DNA of 64,000 bases from Seison nebaliae (lineage: Eukaryota), in assembly GCA_023231475.1 (NCBI GenBank), contig JALJEE010001258.1:62001-126000 (forward strand), read 5' to 3'. Shown one piece after another: positions 1,446 to 64,000 of the stretch; the first letter of the stretch is position 1, and every line of letters begins with the position of its first letter. The position numbers were made by a program, and so were the translations under genes. The notes beneath the pieces are model-generated. The model saw only the letters and a program-made list of their open reading frames with translations. It made no database searches and was not told the DNA's origin.

Positions 1446-4400
1446 CAAATCGGAGATATGGAGAAGAAGCAGAATAAAGAGGAAGATATCAATATGGCAG
1501 GAACGGCGTTACAATACGGATGTGCTATTCAAGTTTAGTTAGATTAGATTGATGGAATAAATTTCAAATTATTTTCCAGTTATATCACGTGAAGAGTCAT
1601 CGATTTTTGACGATTCACAAGCATCTCTCAGCGCAACAAGAGAAGAATGCGATGAGAGTGACACTCGACCGATGTGGAAATGATGGGTCATGGGTTCGGA
1701 TAGAGCCCTATTTCAAAATCCGTCGATTTGGAGATTATGTGTTGGAGGGAGATCGAGTTCTTTTGCGACCGATGAACAGTTCTCAATCATTACATGTGAG
1801 TAAGAGAGAATCATTGACCGATCCATATTGTCATGAAGTGAATTGTTTCCCCGAGACGTCTCGATTAACCGATTGGAAGTTGAATGTTTTTATGAATTTT
1901 AAGGACAACATGTCGGACGTGTTGAAAGGAGGTAGTGTCGTTCGTTTGTTTCATGCGGAACAGGAGAAGTTTCTCACCTGTGGCAAATATAAGAAAGATG
2001 TTCACGTCTTCCTTCGAGGGACGGCCCGAGCGGCGACAGATATGGCCGTTTCCAGTCGTGCATTGTGGGAGATCGTCAAACAGAACAAATTCGATGGTAC
2101 TCCCGTCCATTGGAATTCCGATATCTCATTCAAGAATTTAGCGACTGGATATTATTTATCGGCGAGAATGAATTCCTCTCACGAACTTGTGGCGGTCGTA
2201 TCTGATCAAGATAATAGTATCGATAATAGTAAATTTGAAATTAGTTCTACCATCAATCTCAAGAGTGACGAGAAGATTTCGTATGAATCATATATCCGAT
2301 TGAGGCATGCGGAGACGGATGCGTGGTTAAATAGTGGAACAAAATTGATCGACGAGAACGAAGATAAGCCTAACATGTACCGGTTAGTATATTCGAAAGT
2401 GAAAGAGGACAAAGAGGCGTTTCTCTTGAAATCCGTCTCAGAGAACGAGATTTGGGATTTGGATTTCGCCACCGATATCAGTAAATCTTTATCGATTTAT
2501 GCGAAGAATTTCAACATTCCACAACTCAAACAAAATGAACGACGAGAATTGACGAGTCTCTTAACGGAAATTATTCTCTTCATCACCGGCGAAGAGAGAA
2601 ATGACATCGATTTATTCACCTTATCAAACGCAAATACCAATCGTCAACGACAGAAATTAATTCGTGAACAAAATGTTTTAGCGGGTGTATTTAAAATTTT
2701 GAAAAGTCCATTTTCCAAAACTACTCAAAATGAGAATAAATTCCATTTGGATTATAATAAAATTGGTGAGACGACTGGTGAGAATGATAATGTCATTCGA
2801 GATATGGACGATTTGAAACGTCCCGGATGGGCCTGGTACCGTCGAATCTGTCAATTATGTTATACGATTCTCAGACATTCATTATATGATTATCGGAAGA
2901 ATCAGGAATATGTAGCGAAAGAATTCAGTTTTATGCAACGACAAATGGGCTATGATATAATGGCGGAAGATACGATCACTGCTCTCCTCCACAATAACCG
3001 TCAATTATTGGAGAAACATATCACGTCGAAAGAGATCGAAACTTTCGTCAATCTGTTGAACGAGAAACATGAGCCACGTTTCCTGAAATATTTGGGGGAT
3101 TTATGTATTGCCGATAACGCCGCCATACCAGCAACGCAAGAATTGATTTGTAACATTCTTTTAAAAACGAAAAATGTTCGAGTTCTCATTTTCTCGAAAT
3201 TAACCGAAAATAATGGAAATTCCGTGTCGCTCATTTGGCCAATGATGAATAATGTAAAATGTAACTTAACGACAATTATTGATCAGGATATGAAACGAAG
3301 TCAGACACCGTCGAATATGCTCGAATTCTACATACAACAACTAAATTTGTTTGCCCGTCTCTGTCAAGACAGACAATATTTGGCGATCGATCATTTGGCG
3401 CAGGAATTAACGGTCGATCTCATCCTCTTTTGTATGGACGACGAGAACTTGCCAAATTCTCTCCGCGCCGCTTTCTGTCAATTGATGTTGGATCTCCATT
3501 TAAATCGTGATCCGCAAGAAAAAGTAAAACCGTTAAAATTGGCGAGATTATGGAAAGACATTCCTTTACGGAAAGACATTTTCGCTTGTCGACGTGATCA
3601 ATCCGTTCACACTTTCAGTTCGACGATTCGATTCTCAAAAAAATATTTGTCCAATCTAACTCAACACGTCTTCCGTTCACCAAAACACACGTTATTAACA
3701 CAAAAAATTATTAGTTTAACGAAAAATTTAATAATGTTCAATTTTTGCACATTCCAAGAAATTCAAGATTTCACCTCGATTTTCTTGACGATATTGGATC
3801 ATGATGGAACGTATTCTCATTTGTCACAACGACATGGAAGTACGTCGAAATTGAATAGTTCAAAACGATTGGGAAATTTTACGTCGTCGGGAAATTCTGT
3901 CACTTCGTCCACATCATATTTATCGGATGAATATTTAGACAATATGATAGATGAGACGAAATTGATAATTTTAGATATTTTGAAATTCGTTATTGATGTT
4001 CGATTGGATTGTCGAATTACTTATTTGTTGTCGGTGTTCAAAGAGGAATATCAATTGACGAAATGTTTGGACACTGAACCAATTTTGAGAAAGTTGTCGA
4101 AAAAAGTGAACGGGATATTTGATGGACCTGAACAGAATTTGTCGATGAAAGAATATTTGTATTTCAAAGAGGATTTCTCCAAAATTTTCGTACGAGTTCT
4201 CATCATGTTATTAGGATATACCGATCGGCGATTAGTGTCAAATGCTCTTCGAATTCTTTTCCAACAATTCTCGCAACGATTTGAAACTTTCGAAGCGTTC
4301 AAACAAATTCAATTACTCGTCAACGAGACTGATGTGACGGAATATAATGAGATATGTGCCGATTTGGATCAATTGAAAATTCTGGTAGAGAAATCGGAAT

Positions 4401-7400
4401 TATGGATACGACGACCTCATACCACCATCGACGATAACCCACCATCACAATATGATAATGTATCGATTAATAATCGACTTCGATATTCATCTATTCAATC
4501 TCAACAGGAATTATTGGCATCACATAATGCCGGTACGATTAGAGAGATATTAATCCGATTATATAATCGTTGTCGATCAACCAACGGAAATGTCAATGCT
4601 GATAAACAAACATTAATCAGGAATTTGGGAGCATTTTATATTGTGATGGATTTATTGAAAATAACATTTAATGGAGAACTCAATCCTGGAATGATTATCA
4701 ATATCGAATTGGCTCACTCTTTCCTTCAAGCCTTCGCCAAATGTAACAAGACAAATCAATATCTCGTTTATCATTCCATCGACGTGTTTTTCCATCCGAG
4801 TATGTCAATATCTGAAATTAAAACGGCCAGTGCCGTTTTCTATAATAACGAACAATTGTGTTCGGATATCAAAGCGTCATATATTCATACGGTGGTGACA
4901 TGTATCGAGACAGAGGGACAAAAAGTGGAATATTTGGAATTCCTGAAAACGATCGTTCGAACCGAACTCAAAGTCATCAAATCAACTCAAGATCGAGTCG
5001 TGTTAGAATTGTTGTCATCAGGTGGTGGAATGTTCCACATTTTCAATTCGAGAAATCGTTCAGAGAGTGTCATTCGTCTCATCAACGAAACAACAACATG
5101 TGCGAAAACGGAAATGGAAAAACGAGAAATTGTGAAAGCGAAAGATATTCTCGATTTCCATCTACAATTAGTATTATTATTAGCTTATTGTGCAGAGGGA
5201 AGGAATGCTCAAACGGAAATCAGATGTCACGGTCTAATGCCATTAGATGACGTAATTACGATATTATGTTATGAGAAATCGACATATCTCGTCAAATTTA
5301 CATATGCCACTTTTCTCCTTCATTGTTTCATCGAGACGGAAGTGGAACATCTTGGTTTATATCATTCGGATTTAATATGGAAATATTTTGAAAATCTCAT
5401 AAAAGATCTGAATCGTTTAAATCGGAACGATTCAGCCCAACAAGCTCATAAAGAACTGCATCAATATTTGAATGAGGTGGGCGTGCTCATTATCAATCAC
5501 TTCTTCCATAATAACGATTCGAATATCAGTCATCAAATTCAACGAAATCAGAAAACGGTGGAAGAGATTTTTTATTGTCTCGTCAACGTTTCGAGAAATT
5601 TGGGAATTGGAGAAAATTCTCGTTGTCGTCTACCGAAAACTATCGATATAATTTATAAACGTTTGAAAAATTTGGATTGTATTCATTTTTCAATGCCATT
5701 AAATAATCGAATTGTCATCGATCCTATCACTGATCTGTCGTTGACAGAAGAAGTGATGAATGATGTGGCTGATGGTGTTGTTCAGAATGAGGGAATGAAC
5801 ATCCGTCAATATCTTCGACATAATCATGAACTCCTACAAATGGAAGCAGGAAATCCTATCCCTCAATATCCCACACGTTACAGTCGAAAGATGTTGGAGA
5901 AAGATGACACATCTATTGTGGATATGTTTAATAAAATAATTCGAAAAATTGAAAATAATTTAAAAATTTATAGTCAAGTCGAATCGTTAATTGTGGTGGA
6001 TCTACTACATAAACCATATCTATTATTCACCAATGCCACTCGACCGAAATTCCGAGAACATTTATTGTTTTGTCTCATTCAACACGCCCGTTATCTGCTG
6101 TTCGTGAACGACGAACAATTGTGTCGTCGATTGATACGAACTTTCCGTCAAATGTTGACGATAAATGAATTGTCAAATTTGAAAATTGAAAAATTTCGTC
6201 ATTTTCTCCTTCAGAAATACATCGAATGTTCGAACGAAATGAAAGATGATCATTCGACCGATAACCAATATCTGATGACGGCGGAAATTATGGAAAATAA
6301 TTTCGGTGTCAAATCTCTCATTCACATTCCCATGAGTGAAGTACAACAATTGTTGAACGATCAAGGCTGTTCACAATTGATCGTAGAATTTTTTTCATAT
6401 CCCACTTCTTATTTGTTGCATGTTGAAACATTGAAATTAGCCACAGCGTTATTGGATGGTGGGAATTGGAAAGTTCAAAATTGTATTTTACGAACTCTAA
6501 TGAATAATCATCATTCGAATCAATTCTGTCGACAAATCTTCTCCACCATGGAAGAAGCAATCGAAATCGTTCAACGGAATATGAATCCAAATAATTATAC
6601 TCTCAATCCCGATTTCATCGAAGACGTCCAATTACCCGATTGGGCTTATCATTACGAAAATTCTTCTTTTCAACATCAAATTCATTTCCAACAACAACAA
6701 CTCCATTTACAGGGCTTGGAACAACATCAACAACAACAACAACGACGAGAACAGAATGAGGAGGATTTTGAAAATAGTTTCCTCGCCGACGACATTCCCA
6801 ATGATCAATTACTTCTTCCGTTAGAAGTGATCATTATGCAACCGTTATTACGATTCCTGCAATTGTTGTGTGAGAATCATAATAATTCGTTACAAATATA
6901 TTTATTGGATCAATCACATCAATCGATAACGTCCACTCGACAAATATTGTCAAAACATCATGAAAATCATCAGTTTCAAACGAACGATAAAAACCGTTTG
7001 ACTTTCCCAATTCTCAATGAGGAAAATAAAAATATCATGTTCAATTCCATCAATGCAGCATCGACGTCAACTCAACCGCCACCAGATCACTTCCTCCCGA
7101 CCAAACAATCATTCAACAGTTTCCATCATGGAACGCCTCAATTTCACAAATTCCTCCGCAACGAACAATATCCACAATGGCAATCGAAGAATCAATTAAA
7201 TCTCCAGAATCCTGACCAGAAGAATTCCATCGTCGTCACCAATTACAATATCGTTTGTCAGACTTTGAAATTTTTAGACGTGACTTGCGGATCGACCACC
7301 GCCGAAGCAGGACTACTTTCCTACTACGTCCACAAAGACAACGTTCAACTCATCTCACAAACTTTACAGACGTTGACGGAATATTGCCAAGGACCATGTC

Positions 7401-10308
7401 GAGAGAATCAGGATGCGCTGGCCGCCCACAATTCACATGGTATCGATATTACCATCGCATTGTTGTTGCACGATATCGATTCGCTAGAAAAGACTAATCG
7501 ACGATTAGGCCTAAGATTGAAAAGTGACGCTAGTAAATTATTATTGGCCATCAACGAGAGTCGACATGACGATTATGTGGCTAAACGGATTCTCGCCAGT
7601 ATCACCCCCAAAGCCATGATTAGCGCCTTCACCAATTCCTACATTTACGATTATCATACCAGACGTCATGAATTGATGAAGAATGACGATCTCAATCGAA
7701 TATTCATTTGGGATCAATTGGAACGATATTTACGAACATTTTTCAATTTCGTCAAATCTTATCAATTGCCCAAAATCCATGTTGATGGTGTGGGAACACA
7801 ACCAGATATCGTTATTTTGAATCGTCTGGGAACGGAGGGAGTGGAGACACCTGTTTGTGATTATTCTGATCAACCATTATATACTTCATCCGTTTACGAT
7901 GAATTAAATACGACGACAATTCCACATCTCGATAATAATTATCGTACTGGTATGAAATATGGTAATTTAACGGATCGATTATTATTGACCGTTCGTCAAC
8001 AAGCGGAGAATGAGCGATTTTTATCGTTAGAGAAAGAGTATTGTCATAAAGAATTATCTCCAATGAAAGTTGATCTGATAGATAAAATGGAAATTTCAAA
8101 CGAACAAATAGATGATTGTGGTTATGGCAGTTTCGACACCTCTTATTATTTGGGCATTATTCCAAGTATTCAAATCGAAATTGGTCACAACATTTACATT
8201 CTCGCCCAACAACTCGCTCAATATAATAGTGAATTAAAGAAGAAACTATATCCGATAACAGCCACACCATCAAATTTACCTGTAACGATTCCCGTCGATC
8301 CCTTCTTCAAGACCACTCAAGATCCGACTCCCACTCAACGTTATCGACATATCAACGATGCGCTCCATTATTATGGATCACATACGTCGAAAATTGAAAT
8401 TGTTCGAGCAAACGGCGAATTGGAAAATGTCGTTTTTCCCGTGCCAAGTATTTGTGAATATTTGACAAATGAGACACAAGAGAAAGTTCTACAGACAACG
8501 GAGGAGGACGAACAAGGTAGTAAAATACCCGATTTCTTCTCACAAGCCTCATCGTTATATGATCAGATGCTGTGGCAGAAACAATTGAGACAACGACCGT
8601 CGTTGTATTGGCTGAGTTCGAAAATGAGTGTTTGGTCAGGAATCGCTTTCAATTTAGCCGTCTTCCTCAACATTCTCGTCATCATTTTTTATCCTTTCCG
8701 AAATTCAAATAATGATTCAAATTATAATAATAATAATAATAATAATGATAAGTCAATTCTATCAACTTTTACAGTTATGACAATTTATTATAAATATTTC
8801 AACCAAATCATTTGGTCGTTGTTGTTGCTGGTGAGTTATCTGTGTTATAAGCGACGTATCAAATCTAATCTACTTTATCATCTTCTCCTCCTTCTCACAC
8901 TCATCAAATTCACCCAATTATTTTCCGTTTCTTTCGCTCTCCATATCATTGGTATATTTAATCTGATTAATAAGGGACTCTTTCTCGTCAGTCTGATGGG
9001 GAGTAAAGGTATTTTCCGCTTACATTGGCGAACAATCATCACCGATCAAGAATTCCTTTATCATATCGTCTACATTTTCATATGTATGATGGGTCTATTA
9101 ATTCATCCCTTCTTTTATTCACTTCTCTTATTCGATATCGTCTCACGAGAAGAGACTCTTCTTAACGTCATCCGAAGTGTAACGAGTAACGGAAAATCGA
9201 TTTTCCTCTCTTTCATTCTCGCCGTCATTCTCATCTACATGTTCGCCATCATCGGATACATTTTCATCAGGAAAGATTTCCATTTCGAAATCGAAAATAT
9301 TCCACACGACCTCCCCGGTAAAAACCTCCACCAAACCACAATGGATCGGAGTGAAAATTTTCCAAAAAATTCAAATGTTTGTAAAACGAGACCGATATTT
9401 CCAATCAATCATTCGTCACTCCCATCTCAACCATTTAGTGGCATCAGAAAAAAACCATCAAAAACCGTCGAACTCACCAAAAACGGAAAAGAGGAAACGG
9501 ACAGCAAAGAATATGTTTGTGAGACTCTCCTCATGTGTATTCTGACCACTTTGAATCATGGTCTGAGAAGTGGGGGTGGAATTGGCGACGTTTTACGACG
9601 ACCAAGTCTGAAGGTTTTTTTCCGTTTTTTTTTATTCAAATTTCATTTCCTCTATTTTATAGGAAGATCTATTTATCTTTCGAGTTTTATATGATCTTCT
9701 CTTCTATTTCATCATCATCATCATTGTACTCAATCTCATCTTTTGTGTAATCATCGACACATTCGCCGCTTTACGTGGTGAGAAACAGAGAAAAGAAGAG
9801 ATTTTAAGGAAAAGTTGCTTCATTTGTGGACTGCAACGTAGTGCGTTCGATAATCGAACCATCTCATTCGATGACCACATTCTCGAACATCACAACATGT
9901 GGCACTATCTGTATTTTATGGTTCTACTGAAAGTGAAGCCGTCGACCGAATATACCGGCCCCGAAAGTTACGTCCATAATCTCATTCAGGTTTTTTTCAT
10001 TTTTTTAAGCTCAATTTTTTTAATTTTATTTATTTAAGAATCAATCGACCGACTGGTTCCCAAGGAAACGAACTGCTTGTTTGGAACAAACAAAATCTTC
10101 GATTTTCACTAACAATTCCTCGTCGACTCGACCTGTTGATCACACATTGTTGGAAACGATCGATCCGAAGACAATCAAACAATTATTGAGCAATCCACAA
10201 CTCCTAAAATATCTGTTGGAGGTGTGCGAGAGTTCGAATGACGAAGTTTACGGAAGAAAATTCCATCGACAACAATCATCCACCAGTCAGATAAGTGACA
10301 TTATTTAA
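1446..10308 (+). CDS. ITPR: Inositol 1,4,5-trisphosphate receptor; 5'-incomplete (upstream exons not found in window). Exons 1446-1532, 1580-9613, 9663-9989, 10039-10308
   Basis: MIR/RIH motifs; IP3-binding residues [33 protein letters not shown]; pore filter [10 protein letters not shown]; after splicing, C-terminal [14 protein letters not shown]...HNMWHYLYF and WFP. Confidence 0.97.
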
Positions 10309-11979: not shown

Positions 11980-12065
11980 AGAAAAAGAAGGACGACGACA
12001 ACGAAAAAGATAAGAGAATTATATTTGATGGAATTATAAAAAATTTCAAATTTAAAAATATTCAA

Positions 12066-13219
12066 ATGATGGAAGATCAGACGGATTCATCTTCCGATGT
12101 TGATCGAATGGATTTCCGTGAACGAATGAATCAATATCGAGGAAAGGATGAGGATGAGAAATCGAACGATCTCATTCAATTCCGTTGTCAATTGGCGCAT
12201 GGATCGGAAACGTTCAATGTCACCAATTTCCGGAATGTTCGCGAATTATATAAACGAGTTGCCGATTGTTTCGAGATTGACGTGAATGATATTTTGTTCT
12301 GTACGTTGAATTCCCATCGGATCGACATGGACAATTTATTGGGTGGTCAAATTGGATTTGATGATTTCATTTTCGTTCACGTCAAAGGACTCAAGAAAGA
12401 AGTGACGATATTGAAGGAGGAGTCATCACTTGGATTGACGATCACGGATAACGGTGCTGGCTACGCATTCATCAAACGTATGAGAGATGGTGGATTTATC
12501 ACACAATGTATTCCCCGAATAAAAATCGGCGACCACATTGAAACGATTAACGGGAAAAGTGTTATCGGCAGTCGACATTATGAAGTGGCGAATTATTTGC
12601 GAGAGATTCCCGTCCGTCATAAATTTACTCTCCGTCTCATCGAACCTCAAAGTACTGATTGGGAATGTTATTAATTATAATTTAATAATTAATAAATTAA
12701 AATTTTTTTCCTTAGTAAATGATGGTAGGAAAACGATACGATTACCTAACTCATTGAAGAATGGACGTCAAACATTTCGTTTGTCGAAAAATAATAATGA
12801 ATCACTTCCTCAAGTTCCTCCCACCATTATTATTATTTTTGTTTCCGTCATTTCTACAAATTATTTTCAGATGATCGTCAATGAAGAAATCATCAAAAAT
12901 ATTAACGAATTACTCGAATCTTATTTGGGAATTCATGATCGCGATTTAGGTTTCTTTTCATTTTTTTTCTAATCGATAATCAAAATTTGAATTAGCTCAA
13001 TCAATTTACGAATGTAGTCAGAATGTGGATGATCCCAGTTCCTTCGCCCATACCATCAATAAAGGCGATCTCTCCCAATTTGAATTTGACACCAGTTTCA
13101 TATTCGATCTTTGGGGCGCAATTACGGACGTGGGTTACAAGAGCAAATTGACCAGTCACCATTTACAAGAACCGTCTCACTCACCACCACCCATTTATCC
13201 ATCAATTGACGGAATTTAA
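12066..13219 (+). CDS. GIPC: GIPC PDZ-domain protein (GH1-PDZ-GH2), 4 exons
   Basis: QLAHGS, ILFCTLNSH, LLGGQIGFDDFIFVHVKG, SLGLTITDNGAGYAFIKR; GH2 motifs LLESYLGIHD and FIFDLWGAITD; three ~45-60 nt GTT..AG introns restore the frame. Confidence 0.95.
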
Positions 13220-13452
13220 AACTTGACATCTTTTTTTTCTTTCCAATCCTCCGAGAATGATTTTCACACTCTTTTCATCCGATCTCATTCCACCTCATAT
13301 CATTTTCTTGTCTTGAACGGGAAGATGATATGATTGACGGTTTTTTTTTTACACTGGAAAATCTCAAAGAATTTTTTCTTTTTATGTGAACTTATTTTCA
13401 ATATTTATAATTCTTCCTCCACCCCCTCCCAATAGATTGTCTTCAGAAGGAA

Positions 13453-14659
13453 ATGCTCCACATTATTGGTCTGGGTTTGGGCAATGCACATGACATAACT
13501 TTAGTCGGATTGAATGTGATAAGGAAATGTGATTTCGTTTTCATTGAAAATTACACGTCCGTTATGGTGAGTTCGTTAAATGAAATGGTCTTTTTATTTT
13601 CTATTTAAATCCCAAATCTATATCTATCCCCGTCATGAAAGGAGAGTCTTTACGAGAAGAAAATTGAAGTTTTGTATCGAGAGGATGTTGAATCAGAAAG
13701 TTTCTTTTCCCTACCATTTCCATCATTGGTCTTTCCAAGTGAAGTATATGGAATTAGCTAAAGAGTATGATGTCGCTCTTCTCGTGATTGGTGATCCATT
13801 TTGTGCTACTACTCATTCCACTTTGTTGTTGGAAGGAAAAAAGAGAAATATTCAAATTAAAACTTATCGGAATGCCTCTATCATGAATTGTGTTGGATCG
13901 ACAGGACTTGAAGTTGCCCTTTCCTCTCCTCACATATGAAAACATTTCCTTTTAGTTGTATCGGTTCGGTGAGACGGTTTCCTTCTGTTTTTGGAAGGAA
14001 TCCGAACGAATTTTGAGTTATTTCGAAAAAATTGAAAGAAATCGATCGATGTCCTTACATACACTTTGTCTTTTAGGTTCCTCATTCATTTCTCTCTTCT
14101 TCATATCAATTATCTTCAAAATTCAGATATTAAGATTAGAGAGAACGATATTGATGCTATGATGAAGTTCATATACTTTTTCCTTCTAATTCTCCTCTTA
14201 AATGACCATGTGGGCGATTGTGTAAAAATTGTGTGAGAAATGTGTGAAAATTGTGTTGATTTTAATTTAATTTTTTCTCAATTTTTTCTCCGTCCGTTCC
14301 AATGGAAAAGAGGACAAATTAAATATTTGCCTAATCGATTTATGAAGGCGAATGAAGCGTGTGGACAACTTGTTCATTATATAGACGTGAACGTCAATTC
14401 AACATTAACAAAGAATACTTTAGTCGTTGCCGTTTGTCGATTGGGAAGTGAAACAGAGAGAATTATCGTATCGACGATTGGCCGATTGGCAATCATGTCC
14501 GACGACGATTTGGGGAAGGAATTGCATTCGATCGTTATTCCGGGCCGAATCGACATCGTGGAGAAGGAGGTGATGGAATTGTATAAACAAGATGATTTGA
14601 ATTATGAAGAATTGGTGACGAATCATAATCAGGAAATTGAGACGCTTAAATCGACTTAA
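13453..14659 (+). CDS. DPH5: Diphthine methyl ester synthase, 6 exons
   Basis: MLHIIGLGLG, ENYTSV, LVIGDPFCATTH, NASIMNCVG..GL|LYRFGETVS, HTLCLLDIK, LHSIVIPG. Confidence 0.95.
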
Positions 14660-14739: not shown

Positions 14740-15187
14740 TCATTTTTTTAAAAGAAATTTCTTGAAAACGGTCATCATCGATTGGCAGGTATATGATTGG
14801 TCATTCTCCATTTCCGATACGCTACAAATCATGAATCGTTCACACATACATGACGTCTTCTCAATCATGGCTTTGATGGAGCATTGGGCACCTTTTGTAA
14901 TAATTGGTTGACAGATCTTCAGTTCTCGTCGGAATAACGCTTTGATGGTTGGATGAATTGCGCAACATTCGTTCGTGTCACAATCGGAATCGGCCGAACA
15001 AGACTGCTACAAAATCGTAAATTAAGAGAGATGCGATTAAGAGGGAATGTGAAGAATGAGAGAGACTAACATCAAATACGAGTTGTTTCTTCACTTTCGA
15101 CGGAATTAACTGGAACGATATCGACTGATGAACGAGCACACTCGTCACCAGACAAAGAGCGAGAGAGAAATTCTCGAAAAACATCAT
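14740..15187 (-). CDS. Secreted prokineticin/astakine-like (colipase-fold) 10-Cys peptide, 127 aa. Exons 15187-15071 and 15006-14740
   Basis: Hydrophobic N-terminus MMFFENFSLALCLVTSVLVHQS; 64-nt GTTAGT..TAG intron; exon 2 reads QSCSADSDCDTNECCAIHPTIKALFRRELKICQPIITKGAQCSIKAMIEKTSCMCERFMICSVSEMENDQSYTCQ, with C-x5-C-x4-CC...CxC-x5-C spacing as in prokineticin domains. Confidence 0.8.
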
Positions 15188-16402: not shown

Positions 16403-18000
16403 TCAATTTAATAAACGTAAAACTATCGATCGATCCACTCCACAGGTGATGAGGAGAAGCGGTTCGTGAATATAATGATCATGTTGACGACGATATCGAT
16501 GATTCTGAGACAAATTAATGATGTCGATATCATTAGGCGATGGTGCCGAATTCAATTTGGATGTTTTCGATCGATTCGCTTGATCCAAATGGAATTTCGA
16601 CAATGGCACCAAAATGGCACAAGTGACGCCATTCAATTTCTCGATGCAATTATCCTCCACCGAAATATTTCGATTATGTTGATGTTGTTGTGATTGTTGT
16701 ATTGATTGTTGATTAGAGTGATTATGTTGTGCTGATGTCGATTGTGTATTGGTATGATGATGATGATGATGATGTGATAAAAGTTTATTGGCGGTCGATG
16801 AAAAAATTGATGATTTATGAGGATGTGCACTTTTAGCATGACTCATAATTCCAAATGATGTAATGGAAGGAGAAAGATTCGTAGTGGTATTAACGGAAGA
16901 GTTGACTAGAGAATTAGCGGAATAATTCAACGGTTTAACGATGGCAGATGAATGAAGAATATCAGCAAATAATTGATAAATGGAGGAGAGATGAGAAAGT
17001 GTTGTTGATGATGATTTCTCATGGAAAAGATGTGAAGCCAAATGACCGAATTGTTTAGTAATTGTCGCTTGTCCATTGAATAATTGATGAATTGAACGAT
17101 AATGTTGATAAGCGGCATTTAAATATAAATAATGATAATCGATTAATGAGCAATTGAGTCGAAGGAAAATTGGTGGAAGATCATCATCTGATCGATTATA
17201 AATCTCTGCTAATTCATTCAATGTTATTCCTTTATTAATTGGAAGAGATGTCAAAATTGAATTTGAATTATTATTCGTTCCTAACGACATTGATGATGAT
17301 ACTTGTGTGCCATTTCCACATGACGTTGAAGAACATACTGATGATGATGATGATGATAATGATGATGATTTGATGAGATCATGAATTCCATTAAATAATT
17401 TCGTATTCTGCATATTGTGCTCGTCACCGAAATCATGAATCATTTGAAAATTTGTCAATTTGAAATGACTTCCTCGATCCGTCAACGACGTCATAGAAAT
17501 GGCTGATGCTTTCCATATCGATAATAAACCAGACGCCGTTCCACAAATCAAGAAAATGTGAGCGACTGGTCGATTCATTAAAAATTGTTCCTCATTTGAT
17601 TGCCATTTGGCAGGACATGTAAAAATTCCGGTGGATTGAATTGATGGCGATAAATATTCGACGAAAACATTCAACGTCTTTACACAATTCTCATATGGAT
17701 CAGCCGAGAAGATTTGGAGGATGTCATACGAATTCAAATTGACAATTGAAACCATTCCATCTGCTCCACCAATAAATAAAATGGGATGTAATTTCGTCGT
17801 GTAATGAAGGACGGATGCGCCAGGATAACCAATATGAGCATCGACATATTGATGAATTGGCGTCAATGACGACATCAACGATTGTTGATTGATAGCGGAA
17901 GTGAAATGAAGTAACGATGTCGTATCACCAACATATGATTTTGGTGTAGATGTTCCTGATACATTTCCATCAACATGATTTTTTCCCATATTCGTCGTCG

Positions 18001-18034
<34 letters not shown>

Positions 18035-19265: not shown

Positions 19266-19296
<31 letters not shown>

Positions 19297-44656: not shown

Positions 44657-44692
<36 letters not shown>

Positions 44693-44737
44693 CGCCACAA
44701 CAACCACAAACATCGACCCAACAACAACAACAACAGG

Positions 44738-44779
<42 letters not shown>

Positions 44780-45162
44780 TGCCGTCGATGTTACAACATA
44801 GCACGTTGCAATCGACCTCCAAACAACTTTTGGGTTAAGCGAATTTCGAAGTAGTTTTGAAACTTAAAAAAATTCTATTTTCAGCTCACAGTATCGGAGA
44901 TAATTGCGAACAATACTCCAACATCACTTGCTCCGATCAAGTCGATGAGTTAGACGACTCGTTCTTGAACAGTCAATCGCCGATCGATTGCAAGACGCCA
45001 TTCGGTCTTCATATGGTCTCCCCGTCCGGACCACTCGACAACGACGACGACGATAACAGCTGGGGAAAGTTGGACAATAATTCAGGAATGTGCGCCAGTA
45101 TTGATGATGATATCCCGCCGCCCAAAATGTTGCGATTGGACTCACGAGAAGAAAAACAATAA
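43324..45162 (+). CDS. HMG-box transcription factor (HBP1/Sox-like box) with Tyr/Gln-rich C-terminus, about 7 exons
   Basis: Spliced box VPRPMNAFMLFGRLHRQPYRNMYPSEKNMFITHR|IGEVWKNLPDRKKAEYFTLQEYVSRLHFELHP; introns 43565-43620 and 43751-43799; later junctions less certain. Confidence 0.8.
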
Positions 45163-48133: not shown

Positions 48134-51100
48134 ATGGATAATGATATCAAATCGGAGAACATGTTGGAAACGGAAAGCATACCTCCACCATCTCTCATCA
48201 CAACCAACGAATGGACGTACGAAGAGCAATTCAAACAAGTTAGTCCAACATTTTACTTGTTGTTGTTGTTGTTGTTGTTGATGTACAAGTGACTTGACAA
48301 CTGTTGCCATTAAATCGAATAAAATAAGATAAATAAAAAAACTGCTCCAATCTCCATTTTTATATTAAGGAAATTATTTTCATTACATTAACTTTCAGTT
48401 AAGCGTTAAATTATCGAAGACATATTAGAACACGTGTTCCAATTCGATTTCTATTTTATTAGTCGTTCTGACGACGTGCACCGATACGATGTGCAGACTG
48501 AAATGAAATGCACAAAATTAAAATGACGATGAATTTTATCGTAGAATTTAATGGAATGAGGGAGATATAGTTCCTCCTCGTCCATTGGAGGGCTGGGAAT
48601 GTGAATTATGTAAATTGGAAGTGTGAAATCATCGAATGGATTATAATGAATGAGAACGAGTTCGGGATAGGCCAATCATATCGAATCAAACGGAATGATA
48701 AGTGTTAAACTGAATTAATCAATCATCACTATCGTGTGTGTGGGGAGGGAGGGAGAGAGGGATGGAACGAAGGAGGTTGGAGGAAGAGAATGGAATGGGA
48801 GGACGAATAATCCCATTGATTGATAAATGATCAACGGAATCATATTTGCCTTTTGTTATTATGATGAGTGTCATTGCTTCAATTAGTTACGAATTGACGT
48901 CGATTAGCGAAGGAGAAATCGGAATATTTATGTGAAATAATGGAGAGATTGGTTTATGAATCGATGTAATCAAACATTTATAAACAAAAACGATCATATC
49001 GTCTATGTGGCCTGGCAGCCGGCAACGAATAATTCTCATTCCAATGAAGCAACTAATTGAAATAATGACGTTGCAGATAATTTCATTTTAATATATGTTA
49101 ATTAATTGCACTTCGTTTTGGTCGATTAGACACATTTCACAATATTCTCCCCCCTCCACACACAGACACACACACAAACATAAACATGGCACAGATAGTG
49201 TGCAGTGATGTTGCAGTGGAATGGAGTGGTACGACTTCCCTCCAATCCACCCAGATGAACGGGATCTACATTGATTCTATTAAAGATTTGAGCAGAGAAT
49301 TAACTATTTATATCGATAATGTAGACTCATCCTTTATTCGGTTGCTCATATTTATATACGAACGAATATATCACATTCGCTTATCAAATTCAGTTTCAAA
49401 TAATTTATTAGGGCACACGAGATTGAGCGGCAGCTACTCAATATGTCTGAACGGCAGTCGAACTCGAGGAGCAAACGGGGAGGGTAGGAAGGGAAGAACT
49501 TGCAACGAATAAAATACGAATGGACATAAATATGATTTCATGATCGTTAGAGATCATTTAGAAATTGGAATTTTTCAATAGAATTCCGAATGAATGGATG
49601 GATGGATGGTTGGTAGAATGAATGAATGGATGTGCTTTTCTCCATTATCGATAGAAATATTATTCAATTAATTCCATTGTATTTACATAATTCTCAATAA
49701 TTGAATATTTTAACTATCCTAATCTAGTTGATCGTTCCTCATTTCTCCTCTTCTTCCTCCTCCTCTCCCAATCCAATTGAATCATTTACTCTTTCACATC
49801 TTCACCCGCCTCTCCGAATCACTTCGATTTGTTTCAATTGATTAACGAGGAAATCAGAAAAGATTATCATATTTCTCCATACTCAACTCTCACCCTGCCT
49901 CTCATCCCATCCAATGATTAGTGAAGGGTGGAAAGAAAGAAAGAAAGAAAAAAAGAAAGAAAAAAAAGAAAGAAATTTGAGGGAGAAGTAAATTGGAATT
50001 GATTAGTTTCCACTTCGGTTTCTGTTTTACTTTTCGGCGACCAGGCAATAGGAAGGAAGCAGAAAACGAATTATAAATAAATTAGATGACTTTTCAATTC
50101 TCTCCTTAGTTAGAAATCGTGCACTATTTTTTACTTTTTATTTTTGGTTGGATTTGATATTTTGATTAAATTATTTCTTATTTGTAACAATCTAAAAGCA
50201 CAAGTTCAATTGTGATCATTTCATTTGATAATTGAGTTAAATTTCTTTCGATTCCTTAGAACTTATTCTCAACAGTTTCCCCCTACATACACCCCTATGT
50301 AATATGTCAGAGAAGATTAAAGGAACTATCATTAGCAGTAGTGAGGCGAAGCAAGCAGAGGTTAAATGTAGTTTGAAAGCTGTTAGTTGTCCCCTTCCTT
50401 TCTTTTCTTTCATTCAAAATTAGACGTTATACATTCAAATTATTTATTATTCATACAATTATTGTCGTATATAAGAGATTGTTCTTAATGAAATTTATTA
50501 ACAATTCCGCAATTTTATTTCGAATTCAAAATGGTTCTAAATATTTTTCATTCTCTCAACAAGCTCTACGAGTTGTCGGACGACCCACATCGCAAGGAGT
50601 TTCTTGATGATCTATTCAGTTTCATGCAACGTCGAGGTTAGTGTCCCCAACACATTCCACCCACACTCATTGTTACCGTCGTGCAGGATCGCCGGTCAAT
50701 CGAATACCGATCATGGCGAAGCAAGTGTTGGACTTATACGAGTTGTTTCGACTCGTCGTCAGTAAGGGCGGTCTCGTGGAAGTGATCAACAAGAAGTTGT
50801 GGCGCGAAATCACCAAAGGTCTCAATCTGCCCAGTTCGATTACGAGCGCCGCGTTCACTTTGAGGACACAGTTCACATTCACTCTCACCCTTCCACACGT
50901 CATTCCATATTTAGATATATGAAATATTTGTATCCGTATGAATGTGAGAGATATAAGTTGAGTAATTCGGCTGAATTACAATCGGCAATTGATGGTAATC
51001 GTCGTGAGGCTCGTCGTCCCAGTTACGGTTATTCCGATTACAATACCGCGGCCATGGCAGCCATAATGGCGAATGGATTGAATGTGACGAACAACAATTC

Positions 51101-53028
51101 ACTTAAACAGATTTTGCCACCACATGCCGCCGCAGCTGTGGCACAGGCAGCCGTAAACGTCAACCGCCAATTAAATTTACCTTTCCAATCGCCTAATCTG
51201 TTCGGTTTGAATGGACAGACGTCAATGATGAATGCGGCAGCGACGGCGGCTCTCCAATCCTCTTTGATGAGTAAACCGAATGAGAGTAAGACGTTGAACA
51301 CACGATCGAGTAATTTCCCCACCGACCTCATCACCACCACCTCCACCACCCTCCGTAACGCCAATACGAATTTGAATGGCAGTTGCAACACAATTTGTTC
51401 GAACTCATTCCGAGATAGTAACTTATCTAAAGACCAATCGAAGAACTTGTTGACGAATTCGATGAATAATTCGTTCACGAATAAGAATGACAACAGTCCA
51501 ATACAAATTGCGAATCGAATATTAGAATTCCGTTAGTCTCTCCCCCTTTCTCATTTCACATAACTCACATTTGATGATTGTGCTTAGGCCAAACGAATAA
51601 CAATTTCGAAATTGACAGTAACAATAATAATAATAATAATAGTTTCGACGTCAAATCCCGATTGAGTGATGCGTCCACTCTCCTCTCCAATTTCATTATG
51701 GCTAATCGACAGAATAATAACATTCAGAATCAATTGTCTACTCTTCTCCAATCCCAAGACGGTTTGAATTCCGCTATTTCCAATGCCACTTCAATGCAAG
51801 TGAACGGAGAGAAATTGAATGACTTCCCTCCAATCCAACTTCAAGAGAATGAAACGATGAATTTAGAGAATAACAATGAAAATCTTCGACAATTATTTAT
51901 TGATTCGAATCGAGATAAAATTCATTCGTTAATTCAATCGTTGAACGAATCATCCATTCCCACCGCACTCATGGCACAAGTGAATCACAAGGAACCGAAG
52001 AGTGAAAAGATTGACACTGACGACGATGATAATGGTTCTTGTTCGGACTTGAATAATTCCAGTCAAAACGGTTTCATGAAAGGAAACAATAACCTTTTCC
52101 CCAAAACACGCGACAATTCATTAGCCTCTCCAATTTCGGATAAGTTGGAAATGATTCTTTCATTCTTTTCATAATTTTAATCATTTTAATCATTTTTCAA
52201 TTTCAGGTTATTAGACAATGAGGAATTTTTCGAAAATCTTTCCAATTCACCCACATCGTATTTGGAGAATAAATTGAAGAGGAAATTGTCAATGATTAGT
52301 AAGAAGAATGAATTGAAGAAGAACAAGTTGTTGGTTGATGACGAATTCTTCAATACCACTTGTACAAGCGGTTATTCAAGCGGTAATAGTTTAGTTAATG
52401 AAGGTAACTAATTTTAGTTTATTTTATTTTTATTTTCGTTCTTTTTCCTTCTTTTCCATCATCTCACTTTCATCAAATGTAGATCAAATTCTCATTAATC
52501 GATTCCTCTCTTTTCCAATCTGTGAACAGATGTGCAGAAATTGAATGGAAATCGTCGTCATTTATCGGATGAGGTTGAGGGAAATAAGAAGAACGACGAC
52601 ATATCGAAACCATCAAACTCATTTTTGACGGCGAATCTTTTAAAAGAGAATGGAGGTTCTTTCTTTTTAAATTTTCTTCTCTTCAGCTTAGTTGTTTATC
52701 AGAACGAACAAAGACGAATGATGAAGGAACGATGTGCAACGCTCTCTTCACTTATTTGGCGAATATGATCAACCGACAAGCGACAGATGGAAATAACGAT
52801 GCAAGATCGTGCAAGTCCAATGACGAGGAAGAGACCACCTCCGATCACTCAGTGTCTCCCTCACGAAAGTACTGCGAAATGCCCACTATTCTCTTGGATC
52901 TGGATACGTCATCCAATGTTCAGAACATCGAAATTACTGGTCAATTATCAAATAATAGTGATCAGCTATCAATGCGCCTTCAATATGGATCGATGCAATT
53001 TGAAGGGATTTTACAAAAGAAACAATAA
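48134..53028 (+). CDS. ARID3: ARID3 / dead ringer (retained) transcription factor, about 8 exons; first intron 48239-50563; start codon uncertain
   Basis: WTYEEQFKQ|LYELSDDPHRKEFLDDLFSFMQRRG, PVNRIPIMAKQVLDLYELF...LPSSITSAAFTLRTQYMKYLYPYEC; C-terminal REKLES-beta-like LSMRLQYGSMQFEGIL. Confidence 0.95.
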
Positions 53029-54772: not shown

Positions 54773-57653
54773 ATGAGTGATGGTGAATTCCAGATAAATC
54801 GTACAGAATCAGATATTTTCGTTGATTCCATCTGGTTGGACGACGGTCAATTAATCGAAGATCATCAACACACCATCAATTATCCGAATTTGTTGATATC
54901 GAATCCGATAAATTATGTGAATGTTCCCGGAAACAAATCGACGAAAAATAAAAGTAAATTCGATTCCTCCACTCATCATCCCCCATACAACGAGTGTATA
55001 CAATTATCATATGTGAAAATCGTTGGAAACGGTTTCTATTCGAACAATAGTGTCATCGCTGAACAATTGGCGAAACGATCATCAAATGAACCGTTAGAAT
55101 TCCTCACATTTAACGCGGGAAAACATTTGTACACGTATCCTTATCATACCATTTTGGACGAGCAACGAGAACGTGTTGAGGAAGGTGACGAAAATATTTC
55201 CTTCATCGATCATCGAGTATTCAAAAATACCACTCCCACATGTCACACGATTATCGAACGATTCGATTCGAAAACCGTTTCGGAAGAAAAAAGTCATTTG
55301 GAAATTTTGGTGGGAACGTCGACGGGCGAATGTTATTTAATCAATGTATCGAATCGAGAAGATCCATTCGTTTTCAATCGATCTGCCATCATCGATAATA
55401 ATCGAGTGGTGAAAGTGGAATTTATTCCGAAAACGAACGGTGATCTCTTTCTCGCCGCTTATTCATCAGGAAATGTTTATTTGTGTTCGAGATATCTGAC
55501 CGATTCGAATCCGTTAGATGAATTGTGTATACCATCAATGATGATAAATGCCAATTCGGATGGAGGAGATGATAAGAAAAATAATTTTCTCTCCTCCTCA
55601 TATTTCCGTGCAGTCCAATCACATTATAGTCACATTAATGGAAATGGTAAGAATAATGACGATTATCGTTTCATGCGATTATTATTTAAAAAAAAAAAAA
55701 AAAAAGAAAAATTTTCAAAATATTTCACCAATTTGAGAATGGGTAGTGGAAATAGAACAAAAAAGGGGAAAATCACCTGTCAATCCAATACCATCACCAC
55801 CACCGTTCCCAATACCACCCTCACCACCAATAATACATCTAGTCGAGAGAGTATGTATAAAATGATTCGGAGTCATCTGATCGAGAAGAAGATGCACAAA
55901 AGAACAAGAAAGGAACAGGAAATCGAAGAATTCGTCAATTTGGGATGTAAAACGAAATTTCTCGTTCTCTCCAAAATTCGTTCATGTTTCTGCTATTTCG
56001 ACGTGTGTATTCCCATCACCAATCTTTTACCATTCCATCAGATACTCTTCACTTACTCCAATTCACTCCAACATTCCTCCAACGGTAAAACGACTTTCGA
56101 CATCGATTTCACTTCCTGTGCCAATTCCTCCACATCATCCTATTCGACCACTTCCTCTTTCTCCGTTATTTCCGCTACGAAAGATAAACGGCATTCATCC
56201 ACCGAAGCTGATACTTCGGGTTGTTCGTCAACCTCTACCACTTTTTCGTCGAGTGGTCGAGGTGTCAATCCGCCCGAAGACATTCATTCGTCTATGGAAG
56301 TTCTTTTCGAATATCTCCAATCGGATGATTTCATTGAGACGTATTCGTCAAAAAACAGAACGCGAACGGAAAACGACGAAATCATCAAATTCTCCAATCC
56401 CATCTATTGTGTGCGATTGGTGAATATGGGAAATTATGAGAAATTGATGGATCATTTAATGAAAAAAAATGAGAAACCATCAGATGATAATAATGATGAT
56501 TTAATTCATATAATTCATGAGAATTATTTAGAGAAAAGAAATTTTCATTTTCATCCGAAAGATTTCATGAAACATCTCTCACATCCACTTATCGATCAAT
56601 TGTCGTTATTTCAGACAAATCAAACGGAAGTGAACGATATGAAATTGATCGAAATGAACGACACTAGTCATCTCATCGCATTTACTTTGAGTGACGGATG
56701 GTTGAAGATCATTCAATTTCCATCACTTCTACCATATTTCGCTCATCGATCCTTCTTCTCCATTTTCACGTCGATTGACGTCAGTTCTGATCGTCGACTC
56801 ATCATCGTTGGCAGTCGAGCGGATATCATTTCAATTTTTGATCTCCATCAAAAACGTCTCCTCACCAGAGGTTATGGTCACTGCTCATGGATTAATCACG
56901 TCACATTCGATAATTATTATCCATTCGCTGATCACAATTATCGAATCATCAGTGTGGGAGATGATGCTCAATTATGTGTATGGAATTATCGTCGATCGAA
57001 TGAAATCGATCAATCCGATCAAGTGATCGTGTCGAAAGAGATGGAAAATGTCTCACTTCAATACCATCGTCTCGTCACGTATTTATTGGATTCCATCACC
57101 AACGTCAATGAGGAGACGAATGGAATACAAAAAATGATTTATCGATTTCAAATCGTCTCGTATTTGTTGGAGGAGATGAGTCAATTGTTCGATTTGAACG
57201 ATCTCAACAGAATCAGATGGAAACGAATTATCGGCAGTTCTTTCTGTCCCAACGATGTTGAGGTGATCGTACCCAAATACAAATTCTCCTCCACTAATCT
57301 CCATTATCTGAATCATGTACTATGTCTCAATCAAACCATCATCGTCTGTGATCAGTGGGGGAAGGTGAGTTCATGGATACGTGGTAATTCGATTTCCGTT
57401 TCATCCATAGAAAAACCTGAAGTTTATTATTTCTTATTAAATATCATTTTAAAATTAATATTTTTATTTTAAAATTAATATTTTCTTTAATTAGATTTCT
57501 AACGATGAACAACAACAACAACAACAACAACAACTCATTAATCATAACAACAATAACAAGAATTGTTCGAACGGTGTCGACAGTGACATGAATTCGTTGA
57601 GAATTCATGAGAAGTTGATCGAATCAAAATTCTCATCAACCACCACTAAATAA
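54773..57653 (+). CDS. WDR20: WDR20/DMWD-family WD40 protein (USP12/46 activator), divergent with large insertions, 2 exons
   Basis: FNAGKHLYTYPY, IDHRVFKNTTPTCH, FNRSAIIDNNRV, LFLAAYSSGNVY, RGYGHCSWINHVTFDNY, YRIISVGDDAQLCVW. Confidence 0.85.
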
Positions 57654-59352: not shown

Positions 59353-59593
59353 AATGACCAGACAAGCAACGCCTCCGCATTTTAACCAATGAATTGGAGT
59401 GATGAACGAAACCATCGTGATGGAAATGAGCTATTTTCATATTCTCACTCTAAAAACGGACAAATCTATGTGAAATTGACCATCAGTTTTAACATGACAA
59501 ATACACTTTTTTTTATCATTCACCAGAAAAAGAAAAAATTTTGGAAATTCAAATAAATTGTTTCTCCCCTCTCGAAACTTCCATTCTGTTATA

Positions 59594-61633
59594 ATGTTCC
59601 GATTAATTTCACTTCTTTCCCTTTTCATTGGTTCGATATGGATGGTAGAATTACATCTCTATACTCGATCTAATCGGAATTCTTTCGTAAAAGTCTCATT
59701 GTCCGATTATCAGAGGTTATCAGTCTTATCATTATGATTTATTTATAATTATTCAATATATTTATAATTTCTCCAGTTCCTCCAATTATCGCTCATTCTC
59801 GAAACTTTATATGATCATTCATGGATACACCAACAAGCCGACAGAGAGCTGGTTAATCAGAATTAAAAACGAATTATTATCTGCTGTTATTATTATTTTT
59901 TTAATCATATCAAATCTCTGCTGGGTAAATTATAAAGAAAAGATAACTCCTTAATGGAGTTATTTAAAATAAGATTCCTACTCGTCGCAGATGTGTCTTT
60001 GAGTGGTTGAGGAATATATTAAAATCAAATTTTCATATCAGAGATAATGTCTCATCAAGTGAGATCGGATAGTTAATTTAGTAATAACGGCAGAAGAATT
60101 AGAGAGGCGAGGAGATTGTGTATACGTTGGAACTGGAAGAGTCGAATCAACTACTTTCAGATACCTCTACATCAGGAATAACGGTAAAGGAGTCAATTCA
60201 CAAATGGTGAACATAAATACTTTATTGAAAGACTTATGACAATCGAACATCATCCGAACATTTCTATTATATGTACGATCAAATCATCGTAATGATTTTT
60301 CGGTATTGAAACTGGCAACCCATAAAAGTCACAACAGTAACACACGAACAATTTAAAACTTCAATTTAAGAAAAAAAAACTTGGAACGATGATGGAATGA
60401 GTAGCAAGATTTTTACTATAATTTTTACTTGGAAAATAATTTACATCTTACTCGATCTGCTAATGCTGCAACTTCTCTTCGAGTCAATCTGACATCGAAG
60501 GAAGCACACTTGTTCCAATTTTTCCAAATCATAACCAAATAGAAATCTTGAAATATTCGAGAAAATTGACCATTTACTCTGATTACATATGATTCCTACA
60601 CTCATTATTAACCGATTATTAATGAATTCAATAATATTTTTTCATTGCTCCATCAGAATCTGCATATGCAATAACTAGAGGGAATATATTCTCATTTTGT
60701 ATTTATTATTATTATTCTTCTCATTTTGTGCATTATTCGTACGTTATTGTCCATTATTTGCAGGAGGATGCAAATGTCATCATTGTCGATTGGTCAGCGA
60801 AAGCGCGATCTCCTTATTCGTCGGCTGCGAAGAATGTGAAAGGTGAAGCAGATATTGTCGGCGCGAAAATTCCGGTATACGCTGCGCAAAAATTACATTG
60901 TATCGGATTCTCTTTAGGTGCGCACTTTTGTGGTTTTATCGGAAAGAAAGTGAAATCAGTGAAACATTTGACGATCCCAAGAATCACCGGACTCGATCCG
61001 GCCGGTCCCGCTTACAAGAATCGTCCGGTCAATTCTCGTTTGGATAAAACGGACGCGCAATTCGTCGACATTATGCACACGAGTGTCATGTACGGTATTT
61101 TCACACCGATCGGTCATCAGGACTTTTATGTGAATGGGGGACAAAACCAGCACGGTTGTGGTATGTTTAAACGTCGATCGACGAGTGACATGACTTCATT
61201 CTCCACATTTGACGACATCACACAAACCGTGGACAACGAAGACAACGCTTTCCTTGACGAAGTGATAACGGGTGAGAATTTTAAAAATATTTTTATTTTG
61301 CAAAAAAAATTTTTAAATTTTAAAATTGAAATTCCATTCAGGACGTGCCGGAATCAGTTGTTCACATTCGAAAGCGTACAAATATTATACGGAATCGATC
61401 GTTCATCGAAATGACAAAAATTGTCAATTCAATTCCTTCAAATGTGATTCGTGGGGTTAATATGAAATCATCATCATTTCCATCATCATTTCTCGTCAGT
61501 TCACTATTCGAAGGATTGCAATAGATCGCCATGTTCGAATTGTCCGAAAATGGGTTATGGTTTATCGGCACGACATTGGACGGATGGAATGTATTATGTG
61601 GAGACATCGTCGACCGCACCTTACTGCACTTAG
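59594..61633 (+). CDS. Secreted pancreatic-lipase/PLA1-family lipase without PLAT domain. Introns 59716-59776, 59886-60763, 61272-61341, 61456-61499
   Basis: Signal MFRLISLLSLFIG; MIIHGY, ANVIIVDW; catalytic motifs HCIGFSLGAH, ITGLDPAGP, CSH; ends ETSSTAPYCT*. Confidence 0.9.
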
Positions 61634-63305: not shown

Positions 63306-64000
63306 ATGATACCAGCCATCTTCTGCCGACTCATCATCCTATTCGTTGGAACAGTTTATCCAGCGTATGGATCGTTCAAATCAATTCGAAAAGGACAATC
63401 TGTCAACAATCAAAATGGTATTCGTCAATGGGTCATGTATTGGATCATCTTTGCACTCTGGTCATCAGCTGAATATTTTACGGACATCTTCTTCAGTTGG
63501 TTAGTGAATCATCATTCTAATTTTCATCTTTCCCTCCTATCCCATTCAGGTTGCCGTTGTATTATGAGTGTAAAATCTTGTTCGTTTGTTGGCTCGTCTC
63601 CCCGTTGACATTAGGCGCTAAATATCTCTATCAGAAATATCTGCATAATCTCCTCATGACCAAAGAGAAAGTTCTTTCCCTTTCTCTTTTCATTTATTAT
63701 TTTTCTTCTCATTAAGGAGATCGATAATTTGTTAGCACAAATGCAAATCGTTGGTACTCAAGCTCTCTTCGACTTCTGCACGAAAGCCTTCGACAACATC
63801 TATAGTCTCATCGTTAAAAATGCTCTCGGCGTTCGTCCTTTTCATTCCTTTTTTTATCTTCATTCCACCCCCTTCATTCACAGTTGACACCTACTATCAA
63901 TAACGCCCCTCCCAAATCAACAGAACTAGCCACGGGAGTTGGAGATAAGAAAAATCAATCAAAATCTGTCCATATTATCGACGCTCCAATTGATAATCGG
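63306..64000 (+). CDS. REEP: REEP1-4-like receptor expression-enhancing protein (TB2/DP1/HVA22), 3'-incomplete
   Basis: CRLIILFVGTVYPAYGSFK, WVMYWIIFA, FSW|LPLYYECKILFVCWL.SP, KEK|EID; three GTT..AG introns. Confidence 0.92.

Follow-up and report, generated by a model that had tools for sequence, protein, structure and literature searches.

A preference for T at the third intron position of 5' splice sites in a 64-kb window of the Seison nebaliae genome

Introns in a 64,000-nucleotide (nt) stretch of the genome of Seison nebaliae, a marine seisonid rotifer (PMC8351084, main text), begin predominantly with GTT. The stretch (contig JALJEE010001258.1, positions 62,001 to 126,000; hereafter the window, meaning its whole length) has about 35% G+C and densely packed genes. 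All donor (5' splice site) counts refer to this one window, and were drawn from genomic DNA and protein models. At this level of evidence the excess of T at the third intron position (+3) was confirmed as real in the window, with a best estimate of about 85% GTT and a range of 67–92%. A previous examination of the DNA (the sequence-only reading) had put the share at about 90%; the bias stood, while the figure itself falls at the upper end of the range. The splicing machinery has likely been rewired in the Seison lineage, as judged from the donors described below.

Fourteen genes were rebuilt with 48 stop-free introns, of median length 53.5 nt and with 49.5% T in the intron bodies. Ties were resolved toward GTT, so the GTT total is an upper figure. 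The donor at 48239, supported separately by foreign ARID3 homologues, belongs to a 49th intron outside this curated set. The curated donors comprised 44 GTT, 1 GTC, 1 GTA and 2 GTG. A purine at +3 (GTR), the usual mark of U2-type introns, was thus present in 3 of 48 and could be present in at most 10, with none among the 13 primary donors implied by NCBI proteins (see below). The bias was confined to +3, where T occurred in 44/48 donors as against 13/48 at +4 and 14/48 at +5. The 13 donor motifs quoted in the sequence-only reading were all found at their positions with an offset of 0, those at 15070, 19450, 34930 and 37401 lying on the minus strand. Its roughly sevenfold recurrence of GTTAGT was reproduced by the independent curation, in which this was the commonest hexamer (7/48). 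Sorted by the candidates open to them, 32 donors had GTT candidates only, 5 had a GTC alternative, 7 had a GTR alternative and 4 were non-GTT, for a worst case of 32/48 GTT.

Two annotated proteins gave an indirect witness to splicing. The last DPH5 exon, used as a query, returned NCBI protein P0121 (99% identical, labelled Seison nebaliae), and an ARID3 query returned P0134, likewise labelled, together with two isoforms, P0242 and P0243. The rebuilt DPH5 and ARID3 models were exactly equal to P0121 and P0134, and the three near-identical ARID3 isoforms suggest that transcripts entered the NCBI models. A query with a Sox exon did not return the Seison model. The introns implied by P0121 and P0134 were GTT in 12 of 13 cases, with one GTC and no GTR (p = 0.0015 against 49.5% T), and each junction had a single GT..AG solution where solutions were enumerated. 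Isoforms P0242 and P0243 add two GTA donors on one ARID3 acceptor, bringing GTT to 12 of 15 distinct annotated donors. In DPH5 one GT..AG solution existed at each of the 5 internal junctions, and the alignment of the spliced protein with PDB 3i4t ran gaplessly across four of them and had a 1-residue gap at the fifth. The exonic GTGAGT of DPH5 was judged unused, because its use would remove 7 residues that align gaplessly to 3i4t.

The donors were also scored blind to +3, considering all in-frame alternatives within 45 nt with acceptors fixed and an intron model trained on the curated set. Under an adverse prior of 60A/2.5C/35G/2.5T, i.e., 24:1 against T, the expected number of donors with T was still 35.2 of 48, and 35/48 gives p = 8e-4. 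Expectation-maximization, likewise blind to +3, converged from both starts on T 0.86, A 0.055, G 0.047 and C 0.034. Run with a canonical prior, a crude gene-finder called 25 GTT among 59 predicted introns, but it also predicted spurious genes on the antisense strand and modelled REEP and lipase wrongly; its counts were not used because the models were too crude. Runs X1 and X2, matched to positions 44001-64000, showed neither GT-AG joints nor differing letters in the long pieces listed; both behave as DNA contigs and could be the data from which the window itself derives. Runs X6 and X7 gave no match.

Apart from +3, the donors look ordinary. Enriched among the 44 GTT donors were -2A (26), -1G (15), +4A (19) and +5G (14), with p values of 4e-4, 9e-3, 8e-3 and 1e-6, and +6T was slightly enriched (p = 0.048); +4A was the commonest +4 base over all 48 (22/48). 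The residual consensus is AG/GTTAGT (the slash marking the exon end), in normal register, canonical except at +3 and retaining canonical bases on both flanks that face U1. This agrees with the earlier proposal of GTTAGT as the optimum, as does the longest intron (2,325 nt), which uses CAA/GTTAGT. The four introns longer than 180 nt all had +4A, and three of them +5G. GT...AG ends restored a conserved reading frame, with unique solutions for the NCBI proteins and foreign homologues, as in U2-type introns; the strict U12-type donor motif, RTATCCTT, was absent from the 48 hexamers. None of seven branch-point motifs stood clearly above shuffles, the best, TCA[TC], occurring in 22/48 introns against 16.5 and being matched by 19 of 300 shuffles. 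Signs of cryptic-donor avoidance in coding sequence were mixed: AGGTT was found 4 times against 14.9 expected from codon shuffles, and AGGTG 17 times against 15.4. With boundary dinucleotides kept, AGGTT occurred 2 times against 7.9, the antisense count was also down (7 against 12.7) and AGGTC was equally down.

ARID3 provides a comparison with other rotifers at inherited introns. The donor claimed at 48239 was placed by all eight foreign ARID3 homologues with an aligner that has no +3 preference, as were those at 50637 and 50871. An Adineta vaga ARID3 query returned 28 metagenome loci, of which 15 were aligned and 10 counted as bdelloid-like (29–32% G+C, with a Rotaria or Adineta protein as best match once a tandem-domain match was set aside); the remaining 5 aligned loci either lacked introns or had introns with poor flanks only. 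The same aligner found GTA at 37 of 37 introns in the bdelloid-like loci, which have 46% intron T and a median length of 54 nt. The donors orthologous to those at 48239, 50637 and 50871 were GTAGAA (loci L002 and L003), GTAAGT (L002, L020, L025 and L027) and GTATGT (L020, L025 and L027), respectively. Because these three shared positions are GTT in Seison and GTA in the bdelloid-like loci, inherited introns have changed in place, and short T-rich introns alone do not yield GTT. The Seison line would be the one that changed, with A replaced by T, because GTR is the general state (introduction of bioRxiv 10.1101/2022.06.08.495308).

Relative to this one-gene control the GTT bias is lineage-specific. 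The suggestion of the sequence-only reading that donor recognition has shifted in this lineage is supported: the signal is specific to +3, exceeds the T content of introns, extends to ancestral introns and does not occur in the bdelloid-like orthologues, whose introns have similar T content and length. Acceptors ending in AAG were not specific to Seison (10/48, against 8/37 in the bdelloid-like loci), and 17/37 bdelloid-like donors were GTAAAN. Both the weak +5 position and the AAG acceptors may be shared more widely among rotifers and be older than the +3 switch. According to the annotated ARID3 isoforms, GTA donors are still usable in Seison. A conserved ARID3 exon ending in EWTYEEQFKQ (48137-48238), 2.3 kb upstream, is missing from the NCBI model, as is the intron at 48239; that model begins instead with a non-conserved exon (50304-50381), and the discrepancy points to use of another first exon or to a fault in the annotation.

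The bases facing +3 are position 6 of U1 small nuclear RNA (snRNA), by the register of +4 with position 5 (PMC10581693), and G44 of U6 (PMC11732430). Our best guess, with about an even chance of being right, is a compensatory change of the Seison U1 5' end from ACUUAC to ACUAAC. U1 position 6 would have become A, making GUUAGU the best-paired donor, and inherited GTA donors would then have been swapped individually for GTT. Short U-rich introns would be defined across the intron, so that GUU with one or two more matches would suffice as a donor of low information content, and GUA, GUG and GUC would persist as usable minority sites. U1 is preferred because a compensated U1 accompanies +3U in the only published lineage found to have it, and because the exchange of one base, with the rest of the U1-complementary consensus intact, is what one substitution in U1 predicts. 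The broader proposition, that donor pairing by U1 (or U6) changed and that, once the lineage had diverged from bdelloids, its inherited introns were converted from GUA to GUU across the genome, has in our judgment slightly better than an even chance. Against the canonical U1 motif, Seison donors formed a mean of 4.8 pairs, between the decoys (4.0) and the bdelloid-like donors (6.2). Placing A at position 6 of U1 raised the Seison mean to 5.6, the best of 33 single-base variants (area under the curve 0.86 vs 0.72), a gain that largely restates the consensus. No snRNA gene, U1 and U6 included, was found in the window at the gathering score or at an E value up to 1, nor were U1C, LUC7, PRP8 or METTL16 found there. 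A U1 pattern had one match in a viral collection, which was not U1. In a prokaryote collection it had 43 matches, and the 20 scanned held five U1 genes of other organisms with a canonical 5' end, uninformative for Seison; these lie on bacterial-bin contigs (L035, which also carries part of U2, L040, L043, L056 and L064), are of animal type and represent eukaryotic contamination.

Several observations weigh against a U1-led recoding. In the worst case GTR accounts for 10/48 donors, and two of the three annotated alternatives at one ARID3 intron are GTA. In nineteen of the 44 GTT donors neither -1G nor +5G is present, and these would pair weakly under any U1. Coding sequence shows no avoidance of GTTAG, which occurs there 18 times against 10.0 expected. 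The bdelloid-like control is one gene with 9 intron positions, so its 37 introns are not 37 independent events. U5 (exon side) and U6 (+4 to +6) explain the U1-like flanks equally well. Yeasts, Giardia and other lineages with a pyrimidine at +4 (+4Y) retain a standard U1 (PMC10581693; bioRxiv 10.1101/2022.06.08.495308), and Fritillaria borealis retains its U1 5' end despite about 95% non-GT/AG introns (PMC13326754).

Other readings place the change elsewhere. With a canonical U1, +3 U might be selected at the hand-over to U6, through a G44.U wobble or a Watson-Crick pair if the U6 base is now A, perhaps with altered METTL16, SNRNP27K or PRP8; we regard this as possible, if unlikely. It is in keeping with the persistent +4A and +5G enrichment, with reports that +3 A or G contacts U6 G44 only weakly and that U1 pairing alone does not set the site (PMC11732430), and with the extra U6 pairing also permitted by the Entamoeba donor GUUUGU (bioRxiv 10.1101/2022.06.08.495308). 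A weak trend toward U5/U6 compensation points the same way: -2A with a purine at -1 occurred in 20/32 donors lacking +5G and in 5/16 having it (p = 0.066), although a two-class U5/U6 seesaw was rejected as not significant. The bdelloid-like loci, presumably with an ordinary U6, nevertheless use GTA throughout, so G44 alone does not favor U and a second change would be needed; moreover, the reported effects of METTL16 and SNRNP27K are at +4, not +3 (PMC11732430; PMC10581693). It is rather improbable that both snRNAs are canonical and that a diverged U1-particle protein (U1C, LUC7 or a U-binding factor of the TIA-1/Nam8 type) or a changed RNA modification (pseudouridine or N6-methyladenosine) prefers +3 U. 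For this speak Fritillaria, which alters snRNA modification but not sequence (PMC13326754), and the highly diverged U1C candidate of Entamoeba (bioRxiv 10.1101/2022.06.08.495308). Seison proteins, too, are very divergent (PPIL2 showed 39-46% identity to the best 119 other matches, with nothing closer), and the introns are U-rich with no branch motif detected. A general U-binding factor would not give a signal confined to +3, such as the counts of T at +3 to +5 show.

It is very doubtful that +3 is unconstrained, with T-rich mutation or modelling bias producing the excess and a genome-wide share nearer one half. The intron bodies are indeed about half T, 29 of the 64 GT dinucleotides within them continue with T, and the canonical-prior gene-finder gave less than half GTT. 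Both the NCBI-implied introns and the adverse-prior scoring nonetheless exceed this expectation, foreign homologues place the same GTT junctions in DPH5, the IP3 receptor (IP3R) and ARID3, and the same aligner yields only GTA in the equally T-rich bdelloid-like introns. Least credible, to the point of being hardly worth entertaining, is that canonical U1 binds one base shifted or bulged, or that the GTT introns are a recent mobile-element family. Roca and Krainer reportedly described shifted-register or bulged U1 pairing at GUUAAGU donors, and a GTT start is said to be the hallmark of shifted-register sites, a feature shared with Seison. The bases predicted by such a register (+5A, +6G, -1A and -2C) occurred in 10, 4, 18 and 8 of the 44 GTT donors, none enriched (p = 0.72, 0.37, 0.19 and 0.62), whereas +5G of the normal register is, and the shifted register was rejected. 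A shared intron family was rejected as well: all-against-all BLAST of the 48 introns gave only AT-rich or simple-repeat matches of 13-33 nt, and three GTT introns lie at positions common to other rotifers (only ARID3 positions were compared).

Donor transformation is already a known phenomenon, both where U1 co-evolved and where it did not. Entamoeba has GUUUGU(U) donors with a co-evolved U1 ACAAAC (bioRxiv 10.1101/2022.06.08.495308) and resembles Seison in that U dominates +3 of GT-AG introns and +5G and +6U are preferred. Entamoeba is, however, a protist with massive intron loss and a strict donor, 88-90% being one hexamer with both +3 and +4 changed. In Seison, an animal whose genes can carry several introns and use alternative donors, the swap is confined to +3, A is the commonest +4 base (T in 13/48), the top hexamer reaches 7/48 and GTTTGT is found in 0/48. 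Lineages with +4U or +4Y (Saccharomycotina, Giardia and others) likewise changed one donor position from purine to pyrimidine genome-wide (PMC10581693; bioRxiv 10.1101/2022.06.08.495308), but there +4 switched, linked to METTL16/SNRNP27K and with U1 and U6 unchanged, whereas Seison switched +3 and kept +4A. Fritillaria borealis is also an animal that departs from the usual donor signal, there at genome scale (PMC13326754); its terminal dinucleotides are altered, whereas Seison keeps GT-AG and at least three of its changed introns are inherited. Caenorhabditis elegans shares short introns, a compact genome and some tolerance at +3, but A remains the majority there at 58% (PMC6140464), against about 2-13% in the window. 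In the main texts searched, of incomplete coverage, no +3U-dominant donors were reported for Seison, rotifers or other animals, and supplements could hold genome-wide logos. PMC8351084 contains "intron" twice and "splic" once, and the passages covered say nothing on donor sequence; the main text of a 263-species intron survey includes neither Seison, Adineta nor Brachionus.

The gene models and their donors are collected in Table 1. At the IP3R donor 9614 the junction unites consecutive residues 2510/2511 of the ITPR2 chain, and homology extends to the codon preceding 9990. Positions 1432-1457 hold an AG acceptor with an in-frame extension before the modelled start, where the Pfam profile (213 positions) is matched only from position 103 on, and more exons probably lie upstream. 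For GIPC, PDB searches gave no decision on donors 12667 and 12814; the intron at 12814-12870 is 57 nt long, a multiple of three, and free of in-frame stops, so that its retention would preserve the frame. The 798-codon open reading frame at 16406-18799 seems to represent the C-terminal portion of the DMXL/Rav1-like gene, to which it was joined by likeness to DMXL motifs. In the HMG-box gene, weak collinear PDB matches run through an exonic GTGAGT at 43867. A PDB search gave no decision between the WD40 donors 57365 and 57422; the 57 nt between them contain 21% G and are exon-like, against 3% in the intron. The lipase intron 61272-61341 is open in the upstream frame, with no stop.

Table 1. Gene models, donors and ARID3 introns in the window (a slash marks the exon end, a caret the intron position in the protein)
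Feature	Position	Strand	Donors and remarks
IP3 receptor	1458..10308	+	1533 GTTTAG, 9614 GTTTTT, 9990 GTTTTT; Pfam
GIPC	12066..13219	+	12667 GTTATT (alternative 12652 GTACTG), 12814 GTTCCT, 12950 GTTTCT
DPH5, six introns	13330..14659	+	13340 GTTTTT, 13588 GTCTTT, 13700 GTTTCT, 13913 GTTGCC, 14077 GTTCCT, 14167 GTTCAT
Exonic in-frame ATG/GTGAGT in DPH5	13567..13572	+	21 nt before the used GTC donor; skipped
Small cysteine-rich secreted-type gene	14740..15187	-	15070 GTTAGT, 15079 GTATTT equally good; reading frame, no Pfam match
DMXL/Rav1-like gene	16403..28827	-	Pfam Rav1p_C; stop-free 3,909-codon model
DMXL/Rav1-like donors		-	20395 GTTTCA, 20107 GTTCTC, 19980 GTTAAT, 19450 GTAAGA, 18994 GTTATT, 18732 GTTTCA
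LETM1	29564..32030	+	31556 GTTTTT (alternative 31550 GTAAAA), 31843 GTTAAA
Acidic gene without assigned family	32848..33645	+	32888 GTTAGT (GTC alternatives), 32978 GTTAAT, 33117 GTTTGA; frame and composition only
Chitin-binding/EGF gene	33849..35216	-	34930 GTGAAT (exception)
Gene without assigned family	35530..37428	-	37401 GTTAGT (GTC alternative), 37229 GTTATT; reading frame only
HMG-box (Sox-like) gene	43324..45162	+	Pfam HMG_box split at profile 30/31
HMG-box donors		+	43565 GTTAGC, 43751 GTTCGA, 43898 GTTCGA, 44110 GTTCGG (alternative 44128 GTAAAC), 44209 GTTATT, 44834 GTTAAG
ARID3 ancestral intron, phase 0	48239..50563	+	2,325 nt, CAA/GTTAGT, EEQFKQ^LYEL; 8/8 foreign homologues
ARID3 per NCBI P0134	50304..53028	+	further donors 50382 GTTAGT, 51532 GTTAGT, 52144 GTTGGA, 52389 GTTTAG, 52656 GTTCTT
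ARID3 ancestral intron, phase 1	50637..50686	+	GTTAGT; 8/8 foreign homologues
ARID3 ancestral intron, phase 2	50871..50914	+	GTTCAC; 8/8 foreign homologues
ARID3, three in-frame alternative donors, one acceptor	52383..52529	+	52383 GTAATA (P0243), 52389 GTTTAG (P0134), 52404 GTAACT (P0242)
WD40 gene	54773..57653	+	57422 GTTTAT; in-frame AAG/GTGAGT at 57365 as alternative
Lipase	59594..61633	+	59716 GTTATC, 59886 GTTATT (878-nt intron), 61272 GTGAGA (exception), 61456 GTTAAT
REEP/TB2-DP1 gene	63306..64000	+	63500 GTTAGT, 63671 GTTCTT, 63831 GTTCGT

Intron density is uneven across the window. Single coding exons of about 8 kb (1580-9613 in the IP3 receptor, 20396-28827 in the DMXL/Rav1-like gene) and intronless PPIL2, TFIIH p44-like and RING-RAWUL genes lie beside genes with 6-7 short introns, a picture of patchy intron loss. 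Two multi-copy elements, at about 53455-53800 and 59940-60640, were recognized by a contig depth of 13-40x that of the flanks in X1/X2, variant letters and loose ends; the second sits within the 878-nt lipase intron. Intergenic AT-rich tandem arrays were seen by eye at about 32290-32620 and 39620-40300.

Few features of animal splicing are as constant as the purine at +3 and the U1 5' end. If the shift holds, thousands of introns moved to GUU with degenerate, alternatively used donors would constitute a natural experiment, a reassignment of the splice code that can show which snRNA sets +3. It would bear on why U1 co-evolves with a changed donor consensus in some lineages but in most does not, and on which of U1 and U6 selects the site. 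Reading one snRNA gene discriminates the main mechanisms, and orthologous introns in other rotifers offer a ready comparison of before and after. Software for gene finding or spliced alignment that presupposes GTR would mis-model the Seison genome, as the canonical-prior model did here.

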